The position numbers and the translations under genes are program-made. The notes beneath the pieces are model-generated. The model saw only the letters and a program-made list of their open reading frames with translations. It was not told the DNA's origin and searched no databases. This document shows positions 6,785 through 32,921 of a stretch of DNA of 64,000 bases, piece after piece. Origin of the DNA: an uncultured archaeon (GTDB lineage: Archaea > Thermoproteota > Nitrososphaeria > Nitrososphaerales > Gagatemarchaeaceae); NCBI GenBank assembly GCA_963817525.1, contig CAWFOU010000001.1, forward strand, positions 32,001 to 96,000, given 5' to 3'. Positions within the stretch are counted from its first letter, which is position 1. Each line of letters starts with the position of its first letter.

Positions 6785-7242
6785 ATGAAGAAGAGGGTCC
6801 TAGTAGCGCTCCTCAAGCGACGCATCTCGACCGAAAAGATTGCAAAGAGACTCAATCGTAGTCCTGGCAACGTCTTGTATTGGGAGCGAAAGTATGGACT
6901 CCGGCCGGCGTTTGCCTCCATGGGAAATGGGCGAAGAATTCGATCGCCCGAAGAAATGTCCGCATACATGATCAGCAACCCCACGCTTCGCCGTAGGGAA
7001 CTGAAAGCGAAGGCCATCGCCTACAAAGGAGGTAAATGCGTATTTTGTGGCTACACCCGATGCAACGCCGCATTGGAGTTTCACCATCTTGATAGGAAAG
7101 CGAAATCTTCGGCCTCTCCAGGAAAGGTATTATCAGGTCGTGGAATTCAATACAGACTGAGCTCGACAAATGCGTGCTCATCTGCGCAGATTGCCATCGC
7201 GAGGTCGAAGTCGGTGTGAGGACCTTTCCTCCCGGCGCCTAG
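6785..7242 (+). pseudogene. HNH endonuclease with N-terminal HTH, frameshifted near 7106-7108
   Basis: GGKCVFCGYTRCNAALEFHHLD in one frame continues as FGLSRKG...ELDKCVLICADCHREVE in the -1 frame; lower GC than flanks. Confidence 0.85.
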
Positions 7243-7334
7243 GTTCTCCCATTCCAAAGAGTCTCGCCAACGACTCAAGGGCCTTGCCTGTCTGCTTGGT
7301 CCAGAGTTCCTCATAATCGCCCTTCGATAGTTGC

Positions 7335-8057
7335 TTACAACCCCCGTCGATTGCCCCAGAGCAGAATGTGAAGGCGGAGAGAGAATCGGAACCCTCTCTC
7401 CTTGCATACCTCAACAAGCCATCTGCTCCTCTCGAGGAGGATAGCCGCGTCGATCCCCTCCGGCATCAGTATCACCGTGCCCCTTGGAATCACGAACCGC
7501 GAAATCATCGCCTCGACCTCGTCGAGGTCCTTCTTGTCGCACACGACGAACTTGAACCATGCCTTCCCGGACCCCACAAAGGCCCGCAGCGCATCCGGTC
7601 GCGTCCTCACGCCCTCCTCGTCGAGGCTGTTGGAGATCTTGGGTGAGACGTTGAAGCATTCGACCGACCTCGCAAAGTCAGCGCTCGGCGCTATCGTCCC
7701 GTTGGTCTCGACCTCGATGAAGAACCCCTCGCTCCTAAGGGTCGCGAGGAGAGGCGCTAGCACCCTCTGGTGCAGGAGCGGCTCGCCCCCCGTAAGGACC
7801 AGGTGTTTGCAGCCGAGGCTGGTCACCCTCTCAATCACCGCTGCGACGGACATGGGGACGTACTCCACGCCCGCCTTCGCCTTGTCTTGGTCCAGCCAGG
7901 TGTACTTGCTGTCGCACCACGTGCACGTCAGGTTGCAACGATAGGTGCGCAGGAACACGCTCGGGGTCCCCGAGTGGACCCCCTCCCCCTGGATGCTGAG
8001 GAAAATCTCCGATACCGGCAACTGCTCTTCTGCTGTTTGCACTCTTTTCTCCTCCAA
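7335..8057 (-). CDS. queE: 7-carboxy-7-deazaguanine synthase (radical SAM)
   Basis: EIFLSIQGEG, CNLTCTWCD, TGGEPLL, ETNGT, VSPK, RLH. Confidence 0.92.
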   Translation of the reverse strand: MEEKRVQTAEEQLPVSEIFLSIQGEGVHSGTPSVFLRTYRCNLTCTWCDSKYTWLDQDKAKAGVEYVPMSVAAVIERVTSLGCKHLVLTGGEPLLHQRVLAPLLATLRSEGFFIEVETNGTIAPSADFARSVECFNVSPKISNSLDEEGVRTRPDALRAFVGSGKAWFKFVVCDKKDLDEVEAMISRFVIPRGTVILMPEGIDAAILLERSRWLVEVCKERGFRFSLRLHILLWGNRRGL

Positions 8058-8195
8058 CTCCGGGATTTTTTAGAGGCGGAACGGACGGAGGCCCGCTCAA
8101 CCCGCCTATGTCATGCTGCCGCGCCCGTCGCTATTTAGCTTTCGCCCGATCGACGCTTGGCAGCTCTGGAAATCCGCCTCGGGCGGTGTGCGACC

Positions 8196-9137
8196 CTAGG
8201 TCACCGTGAGAGAGGTGACGCTGATCGTGGTGTCGTATGGCGTCGCAACCCCATTCACCGTCGACGATCCGGCTATCGCCAGGTATGTGACTAGCTTGGT
8301 GCTGCTCCCGGAGGGGGTTCCCACGGAGAGCGCGAAGTTCGTTAGAGTGGTGGGGGTGCCGTTGCAAGGCGTTATCGTCTGCGGAAGCGTGTTCGCGACG
8401 TAGTTCGTCACCTTGAATGTGTTGGTCCCGAGCGTCACGCTAGATGTCCCTGTCGACTTGAAGTACTGGTTGGAGGTATAGGTGGAGAGCTGGTTAGCGG
8501 CCTGTATCTCCGCCGAGAAGCCCGCGAAGAGGCCTACCACCATGCTCCCGCTGATGGAGCTTGTCAGGTTGTATCCGGCCTCATTTATGGCGATAGCGGT
8601 CCCATTGCTCCTAAGGATCCACGCTGTGGAATTCATGTTCTGGCCCTCTCCTTGGAAGTTCAGGTTGACCTTGAAGGTAGTCGCGCTGGCGTACACGACG
8701 CTATATGACTCCGTGATGCTCACCGCCTGTCCGCCGGACGTGCCGTTGAACTGCAGCCCCAGCGCGGAGAACGCGCTGAGGAGAGGCACGACGCTCGCCT
8801 CCGTGGAGGTGGTAGACGTGCTCGACGAAGTGCAGGAAGTCGAGACCGCGCTTGCCGTGCTGCTCGAAGTCGTGGAGCTACTAGAGGACTTTGTGGAGCT
8901 ACTGGAGCTCGAGATCATGGCCGAGCTTGTCGAGGACGACGAGGAGCTCGTCACCATGGCGGACGAGAGGGAAGATGAACTCATGGAGCTTGAGACCATC
9001 AAGGAAGAACTCGAAGTAGTCGAGGAGGACGACTTGGCCGACAAGGCTTCGTACGCCCCAATCCCTACAACGCCGATTACAACTATAGCAATTACCGCGA
9101 TGGCCAGCGGGGCCATCCCCTTTGACTTGTGATACAT
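8196..9137 (-). CDS. Ser/Thr-rich surface protein with class III (prepilin-type) signal peptide
   Basis: KSKG/MAPLAIAVIAIVVIGVVGIGAY, long Ser/Thr linker, beta-rich C-terminal domain. Confidence 0.7.
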   Translation of the reverse strand: MYHKSKGMAPLAIAVIAIVVIGVVGIGAYEALSAKSSSSTTSSSSLMVSSSMSSSSLSSAMVTSSSSSSTSSAMISSSSSSTKSSSSSTTSSSTASAVSTSCTSSSTSTTSTEASVVPLLSAFSALGLQFNGTSGGQAVSITESYSVVYASATTFKVNLNFQGEGQNMNSTAWILRSNGTAIAINEAGYNLTSSISGSMVVGLFAGFSAEIQAANQLSTYTSNQYFKSTGTSSVTLGTNTFKVTNYVANTLPQTITPCNGTPTTLTNFALSVGTPSGSSTKLVTYLAIAGSSTVNGVATPYDTTISVTSLTVT

Positions 9138-9298
9138 CAGTATGTGGCAACGACTGAGACTATATAAGCGCGCGGAGGATTGTTCGCGCAGACGAAGCTA
9201 ACAAAGTCCGCCTGGTCGCCCAGCGCTCAAGCCTAGTAAGGATGATTCTAACACTAACCATATAACGGAGATAATGCGGAATATTCGACAGTGAACCG

Positions 9299-10228
9299 AT
9301 GTTGGACACAATGAAAGTAAAGAACTCTTACATCCCGTGGTCCTTCCTGGACATAGCAGCGAAGGAAGAGGGGCTTTTCGAGAAGCGGGGCCTCGACGTG
9401 GAATTCTTCGCGGTGGGCCGCTCTGAGGCCGAGCCAGCCGACAAGGTCGCCTGGTATGGGAACCTCGTGAGGGACGGGAACCTCGACGCCTATTCCGTTT
9501 GCGCCTGGGGGGCCATCGACAGGCTCGCAGAGAAGGAGCGGGAGAAGATCGTGGCCGCAACGACCTCCTCTGGCTATGCTTTCTCCATACTGGTCGCGCC
9601 GGGTCTCGGAATCAAGACCGCGGCGGACCTCTCTGAGATACCGATCGCCGTCAACATGAAGACCGGCTCCCATTACTGCATCCTGAGCGACCTCGAGAGG
9701 GTGCTGCCATACAGCAAGATTAAGGTCATTCACGGAGGGGAGCCCCACAACAGGCTGAAGGGCCTCTTGGAAGGCAAGTTCCAAGCGGTCGCGCTCATCA
9801 GTCCCTACACGGAGCTCGCCGTCCAGCTCGGCTTCGTCAAGGTCGCCGAGACCAAGACCGTAGACGTCCTGGCATTCGTGGCCCGGGACGACATCCCGAT
9901 GGATGTCCTGACCCGCTATCTGGCCGCCCTAGACGAGGCTGCCAAGATGATGAAGAATGACCCGGAGAGGTTCAGGGACCTCTACGTGAGGACCCTGAGG
10001 GAGACGTTCCTCGGGTTCCCAGACGAGTGGAAGACGAGGATCAACAAGCTGATCGACAAGATCGCCCCGACCATCCCCATCACCACCTGGGGCGAGCTGA
10101 CGGAGTACCCGAGGGAGTCGTTCAACTCGCTCAGCACCTGGATGACCAAGCACAACCTGCTTCAGGCCAACGTCCAGTATGAGAACATGGTGATGAGCCA
10201 GCCCCTAGAGAACGTCCAGAGCGGCTAG
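9299..10228 (+). CDS. NMT1/THI5/SsuA-like PBP2-fold protein, no signal peptide
   Basis: AAKEEGLFEKRGLDVEF, DLSEIPIAV...GSHY; the fold starts at the N-terminus (possible start 9311). Confidence 0.75.
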   Translation: MLDTMKVKNSYIPWSFLDIAAKEEGLFEKRGLDVEFFAVGRSEAEPADKVAWYGNLVRDGNLDAYSVCAWGAIDRLAEKEREKIVAATTSSGYAFSILVAPGLGIKTAADLSEIPIAVNMKTGSHYCILSDLERVLPYSKIKVIHGGEPHNRLKGLLEGKFQAVALISPYTELAVQLGFVKVAETKTVDVLAFVARDDIPMDVLTRYLAALDEAAKMMKNDPERFRDLYVRTLRETFLGFPDEWKTRINKLIDKIAPTIPITTWGELTEYPRESFNSLSTWMTKHNLLQANVQYENMVMSQPLENVQSG

Positions 10229-10245
10229 AGGGAGGCGAGTCGTCA

Positions 10246-11175
10246 ATGGCGCAGAAGCTGACAACAATCTCGCACGGCTACTACCAGCCGTACTTCTACT
10301 GGATGTTCCCGATAGTGGTGGCTAGGGAGGAGGGCCTTTTCGAGAAGGAAGGGGTCGCCCTTGACGTCCACGACATCGTGCAAGGGGGGCAGCCAGAGAA
10401 CAAGGCGGAGTGGTATAGGGAAGCGCTCGACGAGCGGTCCCGGGACTTTTACTTCTGCTGCGCGTGGCAGGGCGTCTACAGCACCTGCGAGACGGGCAAG
10501 GGCAAGATAGGCGCGGCGATAAAGTCCACGCTAATCAAGACCTTCGGGATCTACACAAAGCCCGACTCCCCCATCCGCAACATACTCGACATCACCGAGA
10601 ACGGAGTGCAGATAGCGGTGAATAAGAACGCGGACGCGCACTACGTGACCTTGGAGAACCTCGCCGAATTCGTGCCCGCCTCGCAGATCAAGCTCAAGCA
10701 CCTGGGCGGGATCGACGGGTGCTTCGAGGCCCTGGCGAGAGGAGAAGTCCAGGCCGCGACGCTGGCAGGGCCGTACGCCGAGGCCGCAGAGGCGATAGGC
10801 TACAGGAGGGTGATGGCGCTCTCGCGGACCCTCCCTACGCTCATCGTGTTCAACGATGCCGTCGAGACTTCGGCGGCGAACTCGTTCCTGGCGGCCGTCA
10901 ACAAGGCGGTGGACAAGGTGAACGGCGACAGGACCAAGTATCGCGCAAGGTACCTGAAAGAGTTCGAGGAGGTCGTGAACAAATACATTCCCGAGCTCAA
11001 GGCCGACCTGCCAAAGATAAAGGCGAGGATTAGCCTCCCCACTTGGGCAGAGACCAAGGTGCTTGGCGAGCCCGAATTCAACGAGATTCATGACTTCCTG
11101 GTGGCGCACGGCCTCTCGTCCAAGGGGAAGGGATACGAGGGGACGGTCAAGACGAACCTCGCCATAGCGCACTGA
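10246..11175 (+). CDS. NMT1/THI5/SsuA-like PBP2-fold protein, no signal peptide
   Basis: VAREEGLFEKEGVALDV, ALARGEVQAATL; paralogue of the upstream gene (shared CAW). Confidence 0.75.
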   Translation: MAQKLTTISHGYYQPYFYWMFPIVVAREEGLFEKEGVALDVHDIVQGGQPENKAEWYREALDERSRDFYFCCAWQGVYSTCETGKGKIGAAIKSTLIKTFGIYTKPDSPIRNILDITENGVQIAVNKNADAHYVTLENLAEFVPASQIKLKHLGGIDGCFEALARGEVQAATLAGPYAEAAEAIGYRRVMALSRTLPTLIVFNDAVETSAANSFLAAVNKAVDKVNGDRTKYRARYLKEFEEVVNKYIPELKADLPKIKARISLPTWAETKVLGEPEFNEIHDFLVAHGLSSKGKGYEGTVKTNLAIAH

Positions 11176-11194
11176 CCTCGCGAGTGTGGGCTAG

Positions 11195-12574
11195 ATGGTA
11201 ACCAGAATGGAGAGGGCAATAGAGATTCCGCGCCGGTGGTACAACATCGCCCCAGACCTCCCGAGCAAGCTCCCCCCGGTGATAGACCAGAACACGCACG
11301 GCATCGCGGACAAGAAGATACTCCACAGGCTCTTCGTCAACGAGGTCGCAAAGGCCGAGTACTCCGGCGAGCGCTTCATCACCATCCCGGAGGAGCTCAG
11401 GGACGTATACTCCATCTGGAGGCCCACTCCCCTGGTGAGGGCGAAGCGGCTCGAGAGATACCTCAACACTCCGGCCAGGATCTACTACAAGAACGAGACC
11501 GTGAGCCCGCCGGGGTCCCACAAGGCCAACGCGGCCGTGGCCCAGGCCTACTACGCGAAGCAGGAGGGGACGGACAGGCTCGTGACCAGCACGACGGCGG
11601 GCCAGTGGGGCACCGCGCTCGCCTTCGGCTGCACCATCTTCGGGGTAAAGTGCACGGTCTACATGTCAAAGTCAAGCTACGACAGCAAGCCCTATCGGAA
11701 GGACCTAGCGGAGGCCTGGGGCGCCGAGATAATCTCCAGCCCCAGTACGAGGACGAAGGTGGGCAGGGACATCCTGAAGGAGGACCCGAACTCCAGCGGG
11801 TCGATGGCGGTCGCGAAGAGCGAGGCCCTCGAGGACACCGAGAACGACCCCACTGCAAAGGACGCCGTGGGGAGCATCATGAACTTCGTCCTCGCAACGC
11901 AGACGGTGATAGGCCAGGAGGCGCAGGCGCAGATGGAACCCTACGAAGACTACCCTGACATGGTGATCGGCTGCGTCGGAGGAGGAAGCAACTTCTCCGG
12001 GATATTCTGGCCGTACTACTACGAGATGGTCAACAAGATCAGCCCCAAGCAGGTCGAGTTCCTCGGCGTGGAGTCGTCCGCCGTCCCGAAGCTGACGCAG
12101 GGCCAATACATCTACGACCACTCCGACGTGATGCGGATGAGCCCGCTCTTCAAGATGTACACCGCCGGGCACACGTACAACCCTCCCGAGATCCACACGG
12201 GCGGCTTGAGGGTCCACGGCACGGCCCCGACGCTCAGCCTCCTGCACGCCGCGGGCATCGTCAAGGCCGTCGCGTACAACCAGGTGGAGGTGTTCGAGGC
12301 CGGCGCCCTGTTCGCGAGGACCGAAGGCATCCTCCCCGCTCCAGAGTCCGCCCACGCGATAAAGGCCACGATAGACGAGGCCAAGCGTTGCAAGGCGCAG
12401 AACAAAGAGAAGGTCATACTCTTCAGCCTGTGCGGACACGGCATCCTGGACATCGAAGGATACCGCGAGTACTTCTCGGGCAAGATGACGGAGAACAACG
12501 CCGACCCAGCGGAGCTGAAGAGGTCCCTCGACGAGGTGAAGGGCCTCTATCCCTGGCTCCAGGGCAGCGACTAA
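11195..12574 (+). CDS. TrpB2-like PLP-dependent enzyme (divergent active site)
   Basis: IPRRWYNI, WRPTPLVRA, GSHK (PLP Lys), AGQWG, GGGSNF, PAPESAHA. Confidence 0.88.
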   Translation: MVTRMERAIEIPRRWYNIAPDLPSKLPPVIDQNTHGIADKKILHRLFVNEVAKAEYSGERFITIPEELRDVYSIWRPTPLVRAKRLERYLNTPARIYYKNETVSPPGSHKANAAVAQAYYAKQEGTDRLVTSTTAGQWGTALAFGCTIFGVKCTVYMSKSSYDSKPYRKDLAEAWGAEIISSPSTRTKVGRDILKEDPNSSGSMAVAKSEALEDTENDPTAKDAVGSIMNFVLATQTVIGQEAQAQMEPYEDYPDMVIGCVGGGSNFSGIFWPYYYEMVNKISPKQVEFLGVESSAVPKLTQGQYIYDHSDVMRMSPLFKMYTAGHTYNPPEIHTGGLRVHGTAPTLSLLHAAGIVKAVAYNQVEVFEAGALFARTEGILPAPESAHAIKATIDEAKRCKAQNKEKVILFSLCGHGILDIEGYREYFSGKMTENNADPAELKRSLDEVKGLYPWLQGSD

Positions 12575-12609
12575 GCATCAAATACACGGACGGTTGAGCT
12601 AGCGAGCCC

Positions 12610-13446
12610 ATGGCCAAGCGAAGACCTCTCTCCTACGGAGAGTACCTTGGCCTCGACGAGCTCCTGGACCTCCAGCGCCTCGTCTCGAAGCCCAGGCAGC
12701 ACGACGAGGTGCTGTTCCTCATCGCCCACCAGGCCTACGAGCTCTGGTTCAAGCTGATGCTCAACGAGCTGGAGACCGCCATCTCGCACATGCTGGCCGA
12801 CAACCTCGCCGAGGCGACCAGGCTGATACGCAGGGTCGTCCCGGTCCAGAGGGTCCTGATAGACCAGCTCGAGGTCCTCGAGACGATCAGGCCGACGGAT
12901 TTCTTGAAGTTCAGGAGCATACTCCATCCGGCGAGCGGCTTCCAGTCGCTCCAGTTCAGGGAGCTCGAGTTCATCTCCGGGCAGAAGGACGAGAGGTTCC
13001 TCAAGCTCCACGCCGGGAACGAGAAGGACTACGAGCAGCTCCTGAAGAGGTGGGAGGCGCCCTCGCTCTGGGACGGGTTCAGGACGGTCCTCGAGGAGAG
13101 GGGGTTCGACGTCGGGGGGAGGGCGAAGGGGAAAGAGGCCGAGGTCTTCGAGCTCGAGGTCCAGGCGTCCCTCAAGATATTCACGGAGAGCAAGTACCTG
13201 CACGTCGCCGACCTCGCCGAAGCCATGCTGGAGTACGACAAGTACTTCCAGCTCTGGCGCAGCCACCACATCATGATGGTGGAGCGCGTGATAGGCGGGA
13301 GGCCGGGCACGGGCGAACGTGAGGTCAAGAAGACGATGGGGCCGACCTCATTCCGTCCCTCAGGCGTCAACTACCTCCAGACGACGATGGGCAAGAGGTT
13401 CTTCCCGGCGCTCTGGGCTGCCCGGACAAGGATCGGGGCGTACTGA
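12610..13446 (+). CDS. kynA: tryptophan 2,3-dioxygenase family protein
   Basis: YGEYLGLDELL, HDEVLFLIAHQAYELWFK, SGFQSLQFR, WRSHH..MVERVIG, FFPALW. Confidence 0.9.
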   Translation: MAKRRPLSYGEYLGLDELLDLQRLVSKPRQHDEVLFLIAHQAYELWFKLMLNELETAISHMLADNLAEATRLIRRVVPVQRVLIDQLEVLETIRPTDFLKFRSILHPASGFQSLQFRELEFISGQKDERFLKLHAGNEKDYEQLLKRWEAPSLWDGFRTVLEERGFDVGGRAKGKEAEVFELEVQASLKIFTESKYLHVADLAEAMLEYDKYFQLWRSHHIMMVERVIGGRPGTGEREVKKTMGPTSFRPSGVNYLQTTMGKRFFPALWAARTRIGAY

Positions 13447-13462
13447 GCCTCTAGGGCTCGGC

Positions 13463-14416
13463 TCACGGAAGCCGAAGCTTGGAGAAAGTCTCCAGCGTCC
13501 CCGGGAGGGTCGAGAGGTCTTCCGCGTCCGGATGGAAGGAATCCTTCGCGGAGTACTCGACCTCGAAGGGGTACCCCGCCTTCACGCCGGGGAGTGAGGG
13601 GGATATCCCTGTGATCTTCCCGAGGAGCCTCTGACCCTCCTTGCTCAACAGAAAGTCCAGGAAGTTGCGCGCCGACTTGTTGTCCTTCGCCGTCTTCAGG
13701 AGTCCCGCGGTGGTGAACGTGAGCATCCGTGGTATCCGCTCGCTCGCGAACGACCTGACCGGGGAGCCCGCGGTCCTCTCACGGAAGTAGGCCAGCGAAT
13801 ACACTGTCAAGGACAGGTCGTGGTCGCCGTCGATGAGGCCCTGCAACAGGTGGTCGATGCAGTCGTAGGTCAGGGGCCTGTTGGGGCCTGCCAGGCTCTC
13901 GAGGAACGCTGTCCACTTCTTCTCGGAGACCCTCCTTTTGAGGAAGTTCATGTAGTGGGCGCCGATGTTGCCGAACTTGCTCGTTGTGAGAGACTGCATC
14001 CCGAGCCTCCCCCTCCATTCGGGGGACGCTATCTCCTCGAGGCTCTCCGGCAGGTCCTTGGCGGCGAGCCTCTTCGGGTTGTGGGCCATCGTCATGAACG
14101 TGACGCCCGCCGCGAACCAGTTGAGCCCCCTATCGTAGAACTCCTGGGGATAGGCGCCGATGTCCTTCGCGTCGTGTGGTGTGAAGAGCCCCTCAGCGTT
14201 CATTTGCAGGGCGACGTAGTGCGGGACCAATACGATGTCCGCCGTCCTCATGCCGTTCTTCATCTCCTCGCGAATCCGCTCCCGCACCTGGAAGGGGTGG
14301 TCGTCGAGGTAGACAGGAAACTCCTCCAGGGTGTTCTTCTTCCTGAACTCCCAAAGGAGGTCGGACGTACCGGACCGGAGCCCGAGCGAAGCGTAGATTA
14401 TCACGCGCTCAGGCAT
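13463..14416 (-). CDS. FbpA/ThiB-like substrate-binding-fold protein, no signal peptide
   Basis: LPESLEEIASPEWRGRL, ARNFLDFLLSKEGQ. Confidence 0.75.
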   Translation of the reverse strand: MPERVIIYASLGLRSGTSDLLWEFRKKNTLEEFPVYLDDHPFQVRERIREEMKNGMRTADIVLVPHYVALQMNAEGLFTPHDAKDIGAYPQEFYDRGLNWFAAGVTFMTMAHNPKRLAAKDLPESLEEIASPEWRGRLGMQSLTTSKFGNIGAHYMNFLKRRVSEKKWTAFLESLAGPNRPLTYDCIDHLLQGLIDGDHDLSLTVYSLAYFRERTAGSPVRSFASERIPRMLTFTTAGLLKTAKDNKSARNFLDFLLSKEGQRLLGKITGISPSLPGVKAGYPFEVEYSAKDSFHPDAEDLSTLPGTLETFSKLRLP

Positions 14417-14487
14417 TCGATTTTCGTGCTTGTCTCCAGTTATTTATCGGTTGTTCCTCCGTTAGGAGGTTAGGCGGCGTGCTCCCT

Positions 14488-15006
14488 TCATTTCGGATAG
14501 GCCGCGATTACTTTCACCATGGAGCTTATCAAGGCGCTGGCGTCCTCCGGCTCGACGTTCGAGCCCAGTCTCGCTCCCTGCGATGCACCATCGTCAGTGG
14601 CAGAGTCGTATTCAATGGTCTCAGTGTCGGCCAATCCATCTTTCCCGATGAGCGCGTCGATGTGTCGGTCGTCTCCCAATTCTCTTAACCTATCGAATGC
14701 AGCGAGGATGATGGTTTCGTGTCCGTTCTCATGGATCCGGGCAGCCTGCAAATACCTTTTCCATTCCAGAGCATCTTGATTCGACGCTCCTTTTCCATCC
14801 CATTCGGGCAAGGTCGTAAGGACGCTATAGGTAACCAGTTTGCCCTCCCGGCCATCGACAGATTGCCAAGAGTAGGTTGTGAAAGATGGATGCCCGTCTT
14901 TGTTCGGCGTCAGCTCTCTCATGCTTTCTCTTATCTTCTCGAGGCTTCCTCCTGCTACCGAGTACGTTTTGACAGACGAGCTTCCGTGGACTTCCAGATA
15001 GGTCAA
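14488..15006 (-). CDS. DUF922-like Zn-dependent protease
   Basis: YSVAGGSLEKIRESM, TTLPEW, RIHENGH; lower GC; TTG start assumed. Confidence 0.6.
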   Translation of the reverse strand: MTYLEVHGSSSVKTYSVAGGSLEKIRESMRELTPNKDGHPSFTTYSWQSVDGREGKLVTYSVLTTLPEWDGKGASNQDALEWKRYLQAARIHENGHETIILAAFDRLRELGDDRHIDALIGKDGLADTETIEYDSATDDGASQGARLGSNVEPEDASALISSMVKVIAAYPK

Positions 15007-15070
15007 GGCGCCAGGCCGTAAGGCTGCGGCGAGGGATAAAAGTTCTGGGTCACCCAGTTTTCGAGGACAA

Positions 15071-16210
15071 TTAGCCGGAGCCCCGGAAGAAGTCGCCGAG
15101 CCTGCGCGTCCCCTCCACGATGGTCTCGGGGGGGCTGCCGAAGGAGATCCTGAGGTGCTTCTCGCCCGAGGGGCCAAAGATGACGCCGGGGAGCACCGCG
15201 ACATTGTGTTCGTCGAGGAGCCGGCGGGCGACCGTCATCGAGCTCAGTCGCCCCTCAAACTTCGGGAACCCGTAGAACGCCCCCTCCACCTTCCCGCTCT
15301 GTAGGGCGGGGATCTTCGAGAGCCCCTCCTCGAGGAGCCCCCTCCTCTTCCTGAGCTCCTCCCTGAACTCCGCGGTGTAGCGGTCACAGTTTCGGATTGC
15401 GTAGGCCGAGGCAGCCTGGATGAACGGCGGGAAGCAGGTCACGGCGGTCTCGAGGAACCTGTTGACCCTCAGGATCGTCTCCTTGTCGGCGACGACGTAG
15501 CCGGCGCGCCAGCCGGTCATCGCGAAGCTCTTCGAGAGGCTGAAAAGAGAGATGACGGCCCGCGGGGATCCCTCCATCGAGCCGATCGAGAGGTGCTTCT
15601 TCTCGTAGACCAGGTCCTCGTACGCCTCGTCGCTGATGACCTTTATCCCGCGCCCTACGCAGAGATCGAGCAGCTCCTTCAGCTCGCTCCTCCCGAAGAC
15701 CTTCCCTGCAGGGTTCGAAGGCGTGTTGACGATGATCGCACGCGTCCTTGGGGTGATCTTGGACTTGACCTCGTCGACGTCCAGGGAGAAGTCTTCGGCG
15801 AGCTTGTACCTCACCGGCTTGCCTCCCGAGAGCAGCACTGGCTCGGAGTAGTAGTATCCCGGGTCTGGGACCAGCGCCTCGTAGCCCTGCTTGTACAGCG
15901 AAAGCAGCGACGCGTAGATGGATAACTTGGTCGTGATGAAGATGACGTTCTCCAGCCCTGCCTTGAGGTGGTTCTTCCGCCTCACCTTATCCGCTATCGC
16001 CTCCCTGAGGTCGTCCGACCCCCAAGACGAGCTGTAGTGCCCACCCCCGCTCTTCATGCTCTGGTAGGCCGCCTCGACTATCGGGAGCGGGGTGTCGAAC
16101 GACGGCTCCCCTATGGAAAGGGTGAACACCTTCTCGCCCGCGGCTCTCTTCTTCGCCGCGAGGTTGAATATCTCAAAGGCGGGCGAGTCTTGAATCTCGT
16201 CTAGGGGCAT
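15071..16210 (-). CDS. class I/II PLP-dependent aminotransferase
   Basis: IGEPSF, NTPSNPAG, SDEAY, SLSKSFAMTGWRAG. Confidence 0.92.
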   Translation of the reverse strand: MPLDEIQDSPAFEIFNLAAKKRAAGEKVFTLSIGEPSFDTPLPIVEAAYQSMKSGGGHYSSSWGSDDLREAIADKVRRKNHLKAGLENVIFITTKLSIYASLLSLYKQGYEALVPDPGYYYSEPVLLSGGKPVRYKLAEDFSLDVDEVKSKITPRTRAIIVNTPSNPAGKVFGRSELKELLDLCVGRGIKVISDEAYEDLVYEKKHLSIGSMEGSPRAVISLFSLSKSFAMTGWRAGYVVADKETILRVNRFLETAVTCFPPFIQAASAYAIRNCDRYTAEFREELRKRRGLLEEGLSKIPALQSGKVEGAFYGFPKFEGRLSSMTVARRLLDEHNVAVLPGVIFGPSGEKHLRISFGSPPETIVEGTRRLGDFFRGSG

Positions 16211-16370
16211 CCCCTTCGCGCGCTGAGCGTCCGGATTTAAGCGTGCAAGGAGGCTCGCCCTACTGCATGTTTACGAACGCACGCCAGAAGCCGGTCATTC
16301 TGGACAATTGGACGCTTCCTTGCGGACAGACTTATATATAATATAGCCTGACTAGGTCTCCGTCAACCGC

Positions 16371-16706
16371 TTGAAGAAAGTCCAAGCCGAGGTCAGAAAG
16401 GAGAGGTTCCCAGAGGTGGATTTCGCGCTGAAGAGGCTCGGAGTCCCCGGGCTCACCGTGGCCGAAGAGCAGCGCGCAGGCAGGGGAATGTGGACCTATC
16501 CGCTCGAGAACGTAAAGCACGTCATCCTCACCGTCGTGGTGGAGGACGAGAGCGCCAGCAAGGTGGTGGAGTCAATCTGCGGGACCGCCTCGACAAAGTC
16601 CTGGGGCGATGGCCGGATAGCGGTGAGCACGGTCGAGAACGTCTACGACATTGGCTCTGGAAGATTCGACCGAAGCGAGCTGGCGATGCCGACGCTGGGT
16701 CCCTGA
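16371..16706 (+). CDS. P-II family regulator
   Basis: MKKVQAEVR, GLTV, STKSWGDGRIAVSTVE. Confidence 0.8.
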   Translation: MKKVQAEVRKERFPEVDFALKRLGVPGLTVAEEQRAGRGMWTYPLENVKHVILTVVVEDESASKVVESICGTASTKSWGDGRIAVSTVENVYDIGSGRFDRSELAMPTLGP

Positions 16707-16728
16707 AATTCTTAGTTTTCCTAAGGCG

Positions 16729-16971
16729 TTATTCCGTCGGACCGCCGCTGGCCTTGTACTTTGAGATCAGCGCGGCCACGCCTGCTATCACGAGCATCAA
16801 CGAGCAGAGGTATAGCACAGGGACGAGCGGCGGCTGGAGGCCGTCTCCGCCGGCGTTGACGAACGTCTCGTAGGTCATTAGGCTCCCTATCGCGAGGAAC
16901 GCCACCCCGACCATCCGAATCAGGACGTTCACCCTGGAGTCGTCGGCGTTAATCGTCTTGCCCTTGCTCAT
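16729..16971 (-). CDS. small two-TM membrane protein
   Basis: two hydrophobic segments. Confidence 0.6.
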   Translation of the reverse strand: MSKGKTINADDSRVNVLIRMVGVAFLAIGSLMTYETFVNAGGDGLQPPLVPVLYLCSLMLVIAGVAALISKYKASGGPTE

Positions 16972-17049
16972 CTTCGACTCTTCTCCCGACCGCAGAAAAG
17001 GAGTAAATAAGTTATCCAGTCGCCGCCATGAGCGACGCCCCGCTTGGGG

Positions 17050-31183: not shown

Positions 31184-32921
31184 CAGGCCCAGAACCACAG
31201 CGAACGAGAAGCCTTCGGGCCCCAAGAAGAGGAGGGTCCTCGTGTGCTGCGCCCTCCCCTACACCAACGCAGTCCCACACGTGGGGAACATCGTGGGGTC
31301 GCACCTCCCCGCGGACATATTCGCGAGGTATTGCAGGCTTAAGGGGTACGAGACCCTCTTCATAGGGGGCGCGGACGAGAACGGGACCCCAACCGAGGTC
31401 GCCGCCATAGAGCTCAAGGTGACCCCGAGGAGGCTGACGGACGTCTTCTACCAGGTACACAAGTCCATCTACGAGTGGTTCGAGATCTCCTACGACAACT
31501 TCTCGAGGACCTCCCTCCCGGTCCACCACAAGACAACCCAGGAGATGTTCCTCAAGATCTACGAGCACGGGTACGTCACCAAGGGGGTGATGCGCCTCCC
31601 CTATTGCGAGACCGACAAGCTCTTCCTCGCAGACCGATACGTTGTGGGCAAGTGCCCCGTCTGCGGCTACGAGTTCGCCCGGGGGGACCAGTGCGAGAAC
31701 TGCGCGACCCTGCTCGAGCCGGAGCAGCTCATCGACCCAAAGTGCAAGATCGACGGGAGCGTCCCCGTCTTCAAGGACAGCGACAACCTCTTCCTCGAAC
31801 TCGAGAAGCTCCAGCCCCAACTAGAGGCCTGGATAACCAGCCAAACGCATTGGAGGAAGCAAGTCAGCTCGCTCGCCCTCGCGTGGATCAAAGAGGGCCT
31901 CAAGCGGCGGAGCATCACCCGCGACCTGAAGTGGGGCGTCCCCGTCCCCCTGAAAGGGTTCGAGAGCAAGATCTTCTATGTCTGGTTCGACGCCCCCATA
32001 GGCTACGTCTCCTCTACCAAGGAGTGGGCGGAGAGGTCAGGCAACCCCGACAAGTGGGAGGACTTTTGGCTCGACCCCGAGACGAGAATCTACAACTTCC
32101 TCGGGAAGGACAACATCCCCTTCCACACGATATTCTGGCCGGGGATGATGATGGCGAGCGGGGGCTTCAACCTCCCCTATGACGTTGTCGGCCTCCAGTA
32201 TTGCAACTACGAGGGGGACAAGATATCAAAGTCCAAGAACTGGGGCATCTTCTGCGAGAAGGTCGTCCAGTCCGGGCTAGACCCAGACATCTGGCGCTAC
32301 TACCTCGTGTACCTTATCCCCGAGACAAAGGATTCTGAGTTCAAGTGGGACGACTTCCAGTCAAGAATCAACAACGAGCTGGTCGCAGCGATAGGGAACT
32401 TCGTCCATAGGACCCTCACCTTCGCCTCCAACTTCCTCGACGGGGAGATAGGGAAGAGGGAGCTCATGGACGAGGAGCGGCAGGTCGAGTCGAGGGTCGC
32501 GGAGCAGGTCGCCCAGGCCGACGCGGCCCTCCAGGAAGCAAGGCTCAAGGATGCCCTCAAGAACGTCCTGCAGATAGCGATAATCGGGAACGAATACTTC
32601 CAGAAGATGAAGCCTTGGGTCCTCGTCAAGGAGGACCCCGAGACGTGCAAGCGGGTGATCTACTGCTGCGCGAACATCTGCAAAGTGCTCGCCGTGACCA
32701 TGGCGCCCTTCCTCCCCGGGTCGACGGCGAAGATCTACGGCTTCCTCGGCCTCGAGGGAGGCCCCTCGTGGGACGACGCCCTGGGCTTCTCGCTGCGGAG
32801 CGTCAAGATGCCGGGCAAGCCGGACGTCCTCTTCAAGAAGATCGACGACAAAGAGGTGGCCCGCCTAAAGTCGACGGTGACGAAGAGCTCCGACGCCGCC
32901 GAGTTCTTCAAGAAGCCGTGA
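31176..32921 (+). CDS. metG: methionine--tRNA ligase (no C-terminal Trbp domain)
   Basis: LPYTNAVPHVGN, two Zn knuckles, YVWFDA, GKDN, KISKS. Confidence 0.96.
   Translation: MSSRPRTTANEKPSGPKKRRVLVCCALPYTNAVPHVGNIVGSHLPADIFARYCRLKGYETLFIGGADENGTPTEVAAIELKVTPRRLTDVFYQVHKSIYEWFEISYDNFSRTSLPVHHKTTQEMFLKIYEHGYVTKGVMRLPYCETDKLFLADRYVVGKCPVCGYEFARGDQCENCATLLEPEQLIDPKCKIDGSVPVFKDSDNLFLELEKLQPQLEAWITSQTHWRKQVSSLALAWIKEGLKRRSITRDLKWGVPVPLKGFESKIFYVWFDAPIGYVSSTKEWAERSGNPDKWEDFWLDPETRIYNFLGKDNIPFHTIFWPGMMMASGGFNLPYDVVGLQYCNYEGDKISKSKNWGIFCEKVVQSGLDPDIWRYYLVYLIPETKDSEFKWDDFQSRINNELVAAIGNFVHRTLTFASNFLDGEIGKRELMDEERQVESRVAEQVAQADAALQEARLKDALKNVLQIAIIGNEYFQKMKPWVLVKEDPETCKRVIYCCANICKVLAVTMAPFLPGSTAKIYGFLGLEGGPSWDDALGFSLRSVKMPGKPDVLFKKIDDKEVARLKSTVTKSSDAAEFFKKP

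Follow-up and report, generated by a model that had tools for sequence, protein, structure and literature searches.

A conserved gene cluster in uncultured Nitrososphaeria: a candidate pathway, so far undescribed, for a tryptophan-like compound

TrpB is much used in biocatalysis, and removal of its catalytic glutamate is a laboratory trick that opens the enzyme to nucleophiles other than indole. In the available part of PMC12727527, indole activation is given as the role of this residue, and in the plant TSB-like proteins substitution with Ala (Ser or Pro in Solanaceae) is described as abolishing tryptophan formation, the protein serving instead as an allosteric activator. The present analysis concerns a gene cluster in a 64,000-nucleotide stretch of DNA (the window; positions 32,001 to 96,000 of contig CAWFOU010000001.1, assembly GCA_963817525.1) from an uncultured archaeon of the Gagatemarchaeaceae, within the class Nitrososphaeria. 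There, a TrpB2-type protein that lacks the glutamate (TrpB2*) is encoded directly before a heme protein of the tryptophan 2,3-dioxygenase (TDO) family (TDO*), together with three cytoplasmic proteins of binding-protein fold (PBP-A, PBP-B and PBP-C). The enzymes are variants of known families, whereas their combination and their binding-protein-fold partners are new, and together the genes suggest a previously undescribed pathway for a compound resembling tryptophan. The literature searched contains no description of the cluster, of a TrpB2 clade lacking the glutamate or of the three cytoplasmic proteins; the main text, supplements aside, of the genome paper on the family (PMC10640624) mentions no tryptophan, kynurenine, dioxygenase or indole. 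Public annotations of the parts read "tryptophan 2,3-dioxygenase", "hypothetical protein" and "NitT/TauT substrate-binding protein".

The conserved unit consists of five genes, those for PBP-A, PBP-B, TrpB2*, TDO* and PBP-C (Table 1). The original prediction, made from the letters of the window, had proposed a unit of four co-oriented genes with gaps of 17-35 bp; the reading frames are confirmed, with gaps of 17, 19 and 35 nucleotides, and all four genes are present as claimed, but the conserved unit is larger, PBP-C having been missed and an aminotransferase gene (elsewhere also a gene for a metallo-beta-lactamase (MBL)-fold hydrolase) being linked to it. That prediction had also pointed to an altered TrpB2, to two PBP-fold proteins that lack a signal peptide or anchor and have a CAW motif in common, to the lack of a permease or ATPase nearby, and to the absence of kynB and kynU from the window, and each of these observations stands in the results given below.

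Conservation was followed through 61 loci, of which 20 come from genomes sampled at one per species, 40 from metagenomes and one (L028) from a search of the class; L021-L027 (loci of a distant paralogue), L029 (the contig of L017 again) and L070 are excluded. Since L028 and L058 are a single 148,602-base contig reached twice, the 61 rows are not fully independent. All loci derive from soil, peat or freshwater metagenomes or metagenome-assembled genomes (MAGs). PBP-B is encoded in 59 of the loci, PBP-A in 54, PBP-C in 43, TrpB2* in 41 and TDO* in 37 by the scripted count, or 38 once L005 is included, in which an overlapping MBL open reading frame (ORF) masked the TDO gene; the aminotransferase is encoded in 17 and the hydrolase in 12. 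All five core genes are found in 23 of the 26 loci of at least 9 kb, and the other three (L036, L043 and L065) stop at a contig end. No transporter gene belongs to the conserved set across the 61 loci.

The gene set stays together through five orders and orientations. With the letters A, B and C denoting the binding-protein-fold proteins, T TrpB2*, D TDO*, M the hydrolase and N the aminotransferase, these are A+B+T+D+[M+]C-N-, which is the window's type; [N+]C+B+A+T+D+; [N+]C+B-A+T+D+[M+]; C-B+A+M-D-T-; and D-T-A-B+C-. Two sub-operons are unbroken in all loci measured: TrpB2*-TDO*(-hydrolase), on one strand with gaps of -19 to +35 nucleotides in 15 of 15 loci and with the hydrolase next where present, and aminotransferase-PBP-C, with gaps of -4 to +35 nucleotides in six of six. 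In one sampled genome (G319), six cluster genes lie between rRNA methylase and ribosomal-protein genes, which mark the edges of the module.

Among 401 sampled genomes of the class, PBP-A is matched at E <=1e-20 in eight, but true orthologues with partner genes occur only in the window's genome (G000) and in two others (G299 and G319), the remaining matches being paralogues of 27-31% identity. The TDO Pfam family is matched in the same three genomes at the same loci, and is without a match in the two large ammonia-oxidiser families (223 and 78 genomes). A collection of 5.8 billion proteins contains 62 relatives of PBP-A down to 44% identity, all named sources being Thaumarchaeota or Nitrososphaerales, and for TDO* the 120 best relatives show no less than 56% identity, with the named ones labelled as Thaumarchaeota/Nitrososphaerales-type. 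Because the linkage outlasts five rearrangements and TDO and PBP-A strictly co-occur in three of the 401 genomes, the cluster genes are functionally coupled. The suspicion that the genes act together, and around a non-canonical PLP (pyridoxal phosphate) enzyme, is thus upheld: the gene-neighbourhood search that the original prediction had called for dismisses chance linkage, and neither of the outcomes that it had named as counting against it, a hidden signal peptide or a gene order without conservation, was encountered. In this the original prediction is partly supported, and the heteromeric enzyme or sensor that it proposed for the two PBP-fold proteins stays a candidate.

TrpB2* is a predicted non-canonical PLP enzyme. 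It scores above the cut-offs of NF009057 (613 bits; cut-off 366) and TIGR01415 (560.7 bits; cut-off 518.85) and aligns over its full length to Sulfolobus TrpB2 structures (415 bits to 6hul_B). The PLP motifs, namely GSHK with the catalytic Schiff-base lysine (K110), the GGGSN phosphate loop (262-266) and E384, are invariant in 14 of 14 orthologues; the residue roles we take to be those known from the literature on the Salmonella enzyme. The catalytic loop, however, reads STTAGQWG where canonical TrpB2 has ETGAGQWG. In the 19 orthologues examined, the Glu position is readable in 18, as Ser in 17 and Asn in one, whereas Glu is present in 18 of 18 canonical TrpB2 sequences. Only two positions, E132S and G134T, combine invariance within the clade with at least 85% conservation of a different residue across those 18; softer clade-specific changes include A111 and A113 beside the lysine, F231, A234, C413 and a C-terminal extension that is likewise conserved (about 431-455). 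In a quick maximum-likelihood tree with 55 rows, the 14 cluster copies fall into one clade (SH-aLRT 100, stem 0.58), which neighbours the group with G000's canonical TrpB2 (support 88).

In addition to that canonical TrpB2, G000 encodes a canonical TrpB1 beside TrpA (C1:131618, about 87 kb from the cluster). A third TrpB2-type gene in this genome (C3:24595-25945) has the ETGAGQWG motif, is broken into at least three frames and is probably a pseudogene or an assembly error. Among the best 150 family representatives the motif is visible in 98, with Glu in 77 (ETG 75, ENG 1, ETV 1) and with Asp (9), Gly (5), Ala (2), Cys, Ser, His and Arg (1 each) as replacements; the Ser-Thr-Thr form is seen in one fragment, 79% identical to the query. 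The Glu-less TrpB2-like representatives, which include P0070, P0075, P0084, P0085, P0124, P0132 and P0133, are possibly a pool of non-tryptophan synthases.

Similar comparisons can be made for TDO*. It passes the Pfam cut-off for PF03301 (164.6 bits; cut-off 34.9) but falls below that of the NCBIfam equivalog TIGR03036 (218.9 bits; cut-off 390.7), and it aligns to the Xanthomonas enzyme 2nw7 at E 5.7e-46. The alignment with 2nw7 pairs H220, H40, R102 and T234 with their counterparts in that enzyme; in 13 orthologues H220, H40 and R102 are invariant and T234 is at least 90% conserved, and the aromatic residues of the N-terminal segment are likewise kept, invariant or nearly so. The tyrosine beside the arginine is replaced by Phe98, invariant in 13 rows, and a conserved insertion of 10-13 residues follows the GTG loop. 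By analogy with bacterial TDO, the histidines are presumably the proximal and distal ones, one for the heme and one for the substrate, and we take the arginine and the tyrosine to bind the carboxylate, and the threonine the ammonium group, of the substrate.

Neither kynB nor kynU lies in the window; as a possible formamidase (KynB), G000 has one Cyclase-family gene, on another contig. Kynureninase was not found in G000, G299 or G319 (completeness 95-96%) in a search whose control matched 10 of 14 genomes, so that nothing points to the classical route towards anthranilate or NAD. The search for 3-hydroxyanthranilate dioxygenase gave no match in the three genomes and also matched no control, so that it is uninformative.

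PBP-A and PBP-B are paralogues (30% identity) that no Pfam family matches and that score weakly against the SsuA family model TIGR01728 (33.2 and 28.3 bits, below the cut-off of 163.5). Searches of the PDB with both sequences and with the PBP profile found SsuA at E 0.067 as the best match and no Thi5, and the ESM Atlas returned just generic NMT1 clusters; in the JGI annotation, the PBP genes are given as NitT/TauT transport substrate-binding proteins. The structure model of PBP-A (predicted local distance difference test (pLDDT) 91.6) matches structures of the SsuA/NrtA/TauA/ThiY fold at Z 22.6-24.6, the best being SsuA 3ksj (Z 24.6, root-mean-square deviation 2.7, 271 residues aligned), the cytoplasmic regulatory domain of CmpC/NrtC at Z 23.1-23.9, and the enzymes Thi5, DszB and MqnD at Z 21.4, 19.2 and 19.0, respectively.

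Neither protein has a signal peptide or hydrophobic segment: the maximal 19-residue Kyte-Doolittle mean is 1.25 for PBP-A and 1.01 for PBP-B, as against 2.84 for a neighbouring membrane-anchored protein, and a missed signal peptide is excluded because there are merely eight (PBP-A) and 21 (PBP-B) in-frame codons between the upstream stop and the start. Pfam scans of the 25 ORFs between 402 and 26611 revealed no ATP-binding cassette (ABC) permease or ATPase. The CAW motif is invariant in 17 rows of each protein (C68-A-W70 in PBP-A; C72-A-W74 in PBP-B), alongside K8-N9-S10, W14, N119, T122-G123-S124, C127 and H145 among the invariant residues of PBP-A, and H10, C71, H132, H152 and C159 among those of PBP-B. 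The three binding-protein-fold proteins are as conserved as the enzymes (mean column identity 68-72%), and their invariant residues, mostly polar or aromatic, would line the cleft by analogy with the known fold. Prediction of a PBP-A and PBP-B complex with row-matched alignments gave scores of 0.00 and 0.01, the mark being 0.32, which counts neither for nor against a heterodimer.

A third, more distant SsuA-like type, 27-31% identical to PBP-A (L022:6980-7903, L023:6974-7888 and L021:6968-7894), adjoins pyrroloquinoline quinone (PQQ)-dependent dehydrogenases or an unassigned protein of about 520 residues; several of these loci also contain PBP-C-like paralogues no more than about 7 kb away.

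PBP-C passes the Pfam cut-off for SBP_bac_6 (56.5 bits; cut-off 24.6), and structurally its model (pLDDT 78.5) is similar to HitA, SfuA, FbpA and other ferric-ion-binding proteins (TM score 0.75-0.78); it has the invariant motifs YLDDHP and DCIDH (C186), and no signal peptide. In other genomes the aminotransferase gene is directly upstream of that for PBP-C. The best solved relative of the aminotransferase is the Pyrococcus horikoshii aromatic aminotransferase 1dju (E 7.7e-68), and L009 contains a different aminotransferase, 29% identical to the window's, in the slot between hydrolase and TDO*, which suggests that such an enzyme was recruited more than once. An orthologous MBL-fold hydrolase adjoins TDO* in five loci (L005, L007, L009, L011 and L028); it resembles the "quinoprotein relay" hydrolases at 168 bits, below the cut-off of 280. 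Elsewhere in G000, two adjacent, divergently oriented PBP-C paralogues stand beside a gene of the fumarylacetoacetate-hydrolase family, with no transporter gene directly adjoining (L070, G000:C7:456000-472000, at 6897-8901).

From gene content, linkage, co-occurrence, residue changes and folds, we infer the chemical steps and the part played by the binding-protein-fold proteins, and we give a probability of roughly 40% to a dedicated cytoplasmic route of five to seven genes in which a tryptophan-like amino acid is made, opened at its ring and often transaminated. The gene order, always TrpB2* and then TDO*, suggests synthesis of such an amino acid followed by ring opening. TrpB2* would form the PLP-aminoacrylate from serine or O-phosphoserine and add to it a nucleophile that needs no indole-activating Glu; that this would be something other than plain indole is suggested by the loss of the residue while the genome retains two normal TrpB genes. 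TDO* could then cleave the indole-type ring of the product to give an N-formylkynurenine-type compound, from which the MBL-fold hydrolase, where present, may take off the formyl group, and the aromatic-type aminotransferase would yield a keto acid that would cyclise into a quinoline acid of the kynurenate type. The frequent aminotransferase and the hydrolase beside TDO* fit a kynurenine-type product that is deformylated and transaminated. The three binding-protein-fold proteins could be ligand-handling partners, whether as carriers, as sensors like the CmpC/NrtC domain or as enzymes like Thi5, DszB and MqnD, that bind, deliver or generate small-molecule substrates or products; PBP-A and PBP-B are probably on the nucleophile side, and PBP-C may act with the aminotransferase whose gene precedes its own.

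Several points weigh against this route. The substrate, product and activity of all the cluster proteins are predicted from sequence, and contact of the binding-protein-fold proteins with TrpB2*, with TDO* or with each other is putative. TDO* keeps the residues that bind L-Trp, and its substrate could therefore be plain tryptophan, for which a dedicated synthase would be unnecessary; we assume, moreover, that the residue roles carry over from the Xanthomonas TDO and the Salmonella TrpB. Aminotransferase and hydrolase are missing from many loci, and G000 itself contains no orthologue of the hydrolase. Fused forms of the cluster genes were not seen among longer proteins, although this is weak evidence. 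Finally, a Glu-less TrpB can be a catalytically dead regulator, as the plant TSB-like protein is in the part of its description that is available.

It is this last possibility that gives the most serious alternative its shape, although it is still an unlikely one: TDO* would act on L-Trp in a catabolic route to kynurenine or kynurenate, with TrpB2* as a dead or re-purposed allosteric or scaffold subunit and the binding-protein-fold proteins as cytoplasmic sensors. All Trp-binding residues but one tyrosine are kept in TDO*, regulatory domains of the CmpC/NrtC type are among the best structural matches of PBP-A, and the plant TSB-like protein, which has lost the same Glu, is, according to the available text of PMC12727527, a pseudoenzyme that merely activates its partner. 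The invariance of all PLP-binding motifs in TrpB2* argues for a working enzyme, although the plant protein may keep them too, and the partner that such an activator would be expected to have, TrpA, adjoins TrpB1 outside the cluster. Three separate sensors would also be unusual for a two-enzyme route, and neither kynureninase nor any other downstream catabolic gene was found in the cluster genomes. More doubtful is a role in scavenging or detoxifying indoles, in which the binding-protein-fold proteins would capture soil indoles and hand them to TrpB2*, and TDO* would destroy the resulting amino acid. The titles cited in PMC12727527 present TrpB2 proteins as indole-salvage enzymes, the invariant core of PBP-B is extremely aromatic, and the habitats of all the loci would suit; but a canonical TrpB2 for indole is already encoded in the genome, losing the Glu that activates indole is, on the role given to it in that source, the opposite of what a scavenger needs, and no onward route from kynurenine was found.

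PBP-A and PBP-B might, on the other hand, themselves be enzymes like Thi5, DszB or MqnD, possibly single-turnover through their invariant Cys and His, and make a heterocycle or cofactor precursor for the PLP and heme enzymes. The common fold, the invariant Cys and His and the unusually high conservation are consistent with this, as is the resemblance of PBP-C to iron-binding proteins, Thi5 chemistry requiring iron. Transport proteins and regulatory domains match the model of PBP-A at least as well (Z 22.6-24.6), however, the PDB searches gave no sequence-level match to Thi5, and Rfam, with no match at E up to 1 within 8000-17000, reveals no thiamine pyrophosphate (TPP) or other riboswitch, so that the idea ranks below indole scavenging in our estimate. 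That the PBP genes are decayed transporter remnants which happen to lie beside TrpB2 and TDO, as the JGI label might suggest, is very improbable: uninterrupted, strongly conserved frames are seen in 54-59 of the 61 loci, through all five rearrangements, and signal peptide, permease and ATPase are all lacking. Returning to the dedicated synthesis and ring-opening route, a bolder version, which we consider rather unlikely, would have PBP-A and PBP-B replace TrpA as a heteromer that generates a non-indole nucleophile or hands it to the Glu-less TrpB2, which would thus be a non-tryptophan synthase, with the dioxygenase opening the product to a new kynurenine/quinoline-type metabolite or cofactor of heterotrophic Thaumarchaeota.

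Two other connections were considered and rejected. NadA (quinolinate synthase) was found nearly throughout the large ammonia-oxidiser families (221 of 223 and 78 of 78 genomes) and in none of the 12 sampled genomes of the window's family f1 (88-100% complete), these class tallies taking in five unpublished genomes (G365, G132, G283, G327 and G231). NadA is absent from G000 but also from all 12 family genomes; because 10 of these 12 NadA-less genomes lack the cluster and G319 has both, the cluster is not a quinolinate-synthase replacement, a conclusion independent of the five unpublished genomes. A link with PQQ was hinted at by the hydrolase's likeness to the quinoprotein-relay enzymes and by the distant SsuA-like proteins next to PQQ dehydrogenases, but nothing ties PQQ to the cluster, and the PqqC-like gene of G000 sits by dehydrogenases. 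The PQQ-dehydrogenase family has 34 matches in this genome, corresponding to about 17 or more genes that are often adjacent (for example, C1:1023937-1029983 and C7:400-14042), and the PqqC-like gene (220 bits; cut-off 240) is beside one such group.

The 2.82-Mb assembly of G000 (completeness 95%, contamination 8.75%), on whose contig C1 the window lies, has an even GC content in this region (0.57-0.63), for which a look-up returned no RNA-sequencing run. Pfam scans show that the window also encodes topoisomerase VI, RIO kinase and KH/PNO1-type genes, and homologues of its proteins carry the labels of Thaumarchaeota, Nitrososphaerales or Nitrososphaerota MAGs. Archaeal AmoA has no match in the three cluster genomes, while it was matched in three of three genomes taken as positive controls from the large families f2, f3 and f4, and the hosts of the cluster are therefore non-ammonia-oxidising members of the class.

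Table 1. Features of the cluster and its immediate surroundings (positions in the window)
Feature	Coordinates	Strand	Description
Membrane-anchored protein	8196..9137	-	N-terminal anchor; divergent from PBP-A
PBP-A	9299..10228	+	309 aa; SsuA/NrtA/ThiY/Thi5 fold; cytoplasmic
PBP-B	10246..11175	+	309 aa; PBP-A paralogue; strongly aromatic-rich
TrpB2*	11195..12574	+	459 aa; TrpB2-clade PLP enzyme
TDO*	12610..13446	+	278 aa; tryptophan 2,3-dioxygenase family heme protein
PBP-C	13463..14416	-	317 aa; ferric-binding-protein-like (SBP_bac_6); cytoplasmic
DUF922 ORF	14488..15204	-	between PBP-C and aminotransferase
Class I aminotransferase	15071..16210	-	379 aa
P-II signalling protein, stand-alone	16371..16706	+	divergent from aminotransferase gene

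The genes around the unit are less regular. The longest frame of the DUF922 ORF overlaps the 3′ end of the aminotransferase gene by 134 nucleotides, and because no counterpart was seen at the equivalent place in 20 related genome loci, it is probably outside the conserved unit. The P-II gene is kept at its position in five close relatives (L001, L003, L004, L006 and L007), but not in the other architectures. The membrane-anchored protein on the opposite flank has a Ser/Thr-rich region of about 100 residues and no family match.

What has been a laboratory manipulation of TrpB is thus fixed by nature across the whole TrpB2* clade, where it is kept in the company of a dioxygenase and of three binding-protein-fold proteins of the cytoplasm. 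Should the proposed route be correct, TrpB2* would be a natural synthase of non-canonical amino acids, the binding-protein folds would have a new intracellular role, and the pathway would be the first based on a tryptophan dioxygenase to be defined in Thaumarchaeota, and this in abundant uncultured archaea of acid soil and peat. As the five genes are small and their products soluble, the pathway is directly testable by heterologous expression.

Measured against described systems, the cluster departs from each in its own way. KynA (PF03301; Xanthomonas campestris 2nw7 and Cupriavidus 2nox) and TDO* have in common the length class, the heme His and the substrate-binding His, Arg and Thr, but TDO* scores below the equivalog cut-off, has Phe for Tyr and an active-site-loop insertion of 10-13 residues, lacks a kynB or kynU partner, and is archaeal and confined to the cluster. 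The SsuA/TauA/NrtA/ThiY proteins and their offshoots share the fold of PBP-A (Z 19-24.6 over 270-286 residues), and Thi5, DszB, MqnD and the CmpC domain are cytoplasmic, as are PBP-A and PBP-B; yet sequence identity is only 11-18%, no hidden Markov model matches at the family level, and PBP-A and PBP-B are a paralogous pair with a common CAW motif, found in Thaumarchaeota-type records only. ABC substrate-binding proteins, furthermore, have a signal peptide or anchor and an adjacent permease and ATPase, all of which this pair lacks. PBP-C shares its fold (TM score 0.75-0.78) and a Pfam family with FbpA, HitA, SfuA and FutA (SBP_bac_6), but differs from FbpA-type proteins in lacking a signal peptide, in having its own YLDDHP and DCIDH motifs and in being encoded directly after an aminotransferase.

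TrpB2* can likewise be compared with its Sulfolobus counterparts (6hul_B, 4qys_B and 6hte_B), with which it shares the catalytic Lys, the GGGSN loop, AGQWG and the TrpB2-type Trp that replaces His. Unlike canonical TrpB2, it has Ser (once Asn) for Glu, Thr for the next-but-one Gly, Ala on both sides of the Lys, Cys413 where the canonical residue is mostly Ser, and the conserved C-terminal extension, and its gene is never beside trp genes and always before a dioxygenase gene. The plant TSB-like pseudoenzyme, as portrayed in the available part of PMC12727527, is likewise a TrpB paralogue in which the same Glu is replaced and a normal TrpB is present alongside; it is, however, of the TrpB1 type and acts by binding TrpA, whereas TrpB2* has no linked TrpA, and its partners are the binding-protein-fold proteins and a dioxygenase.

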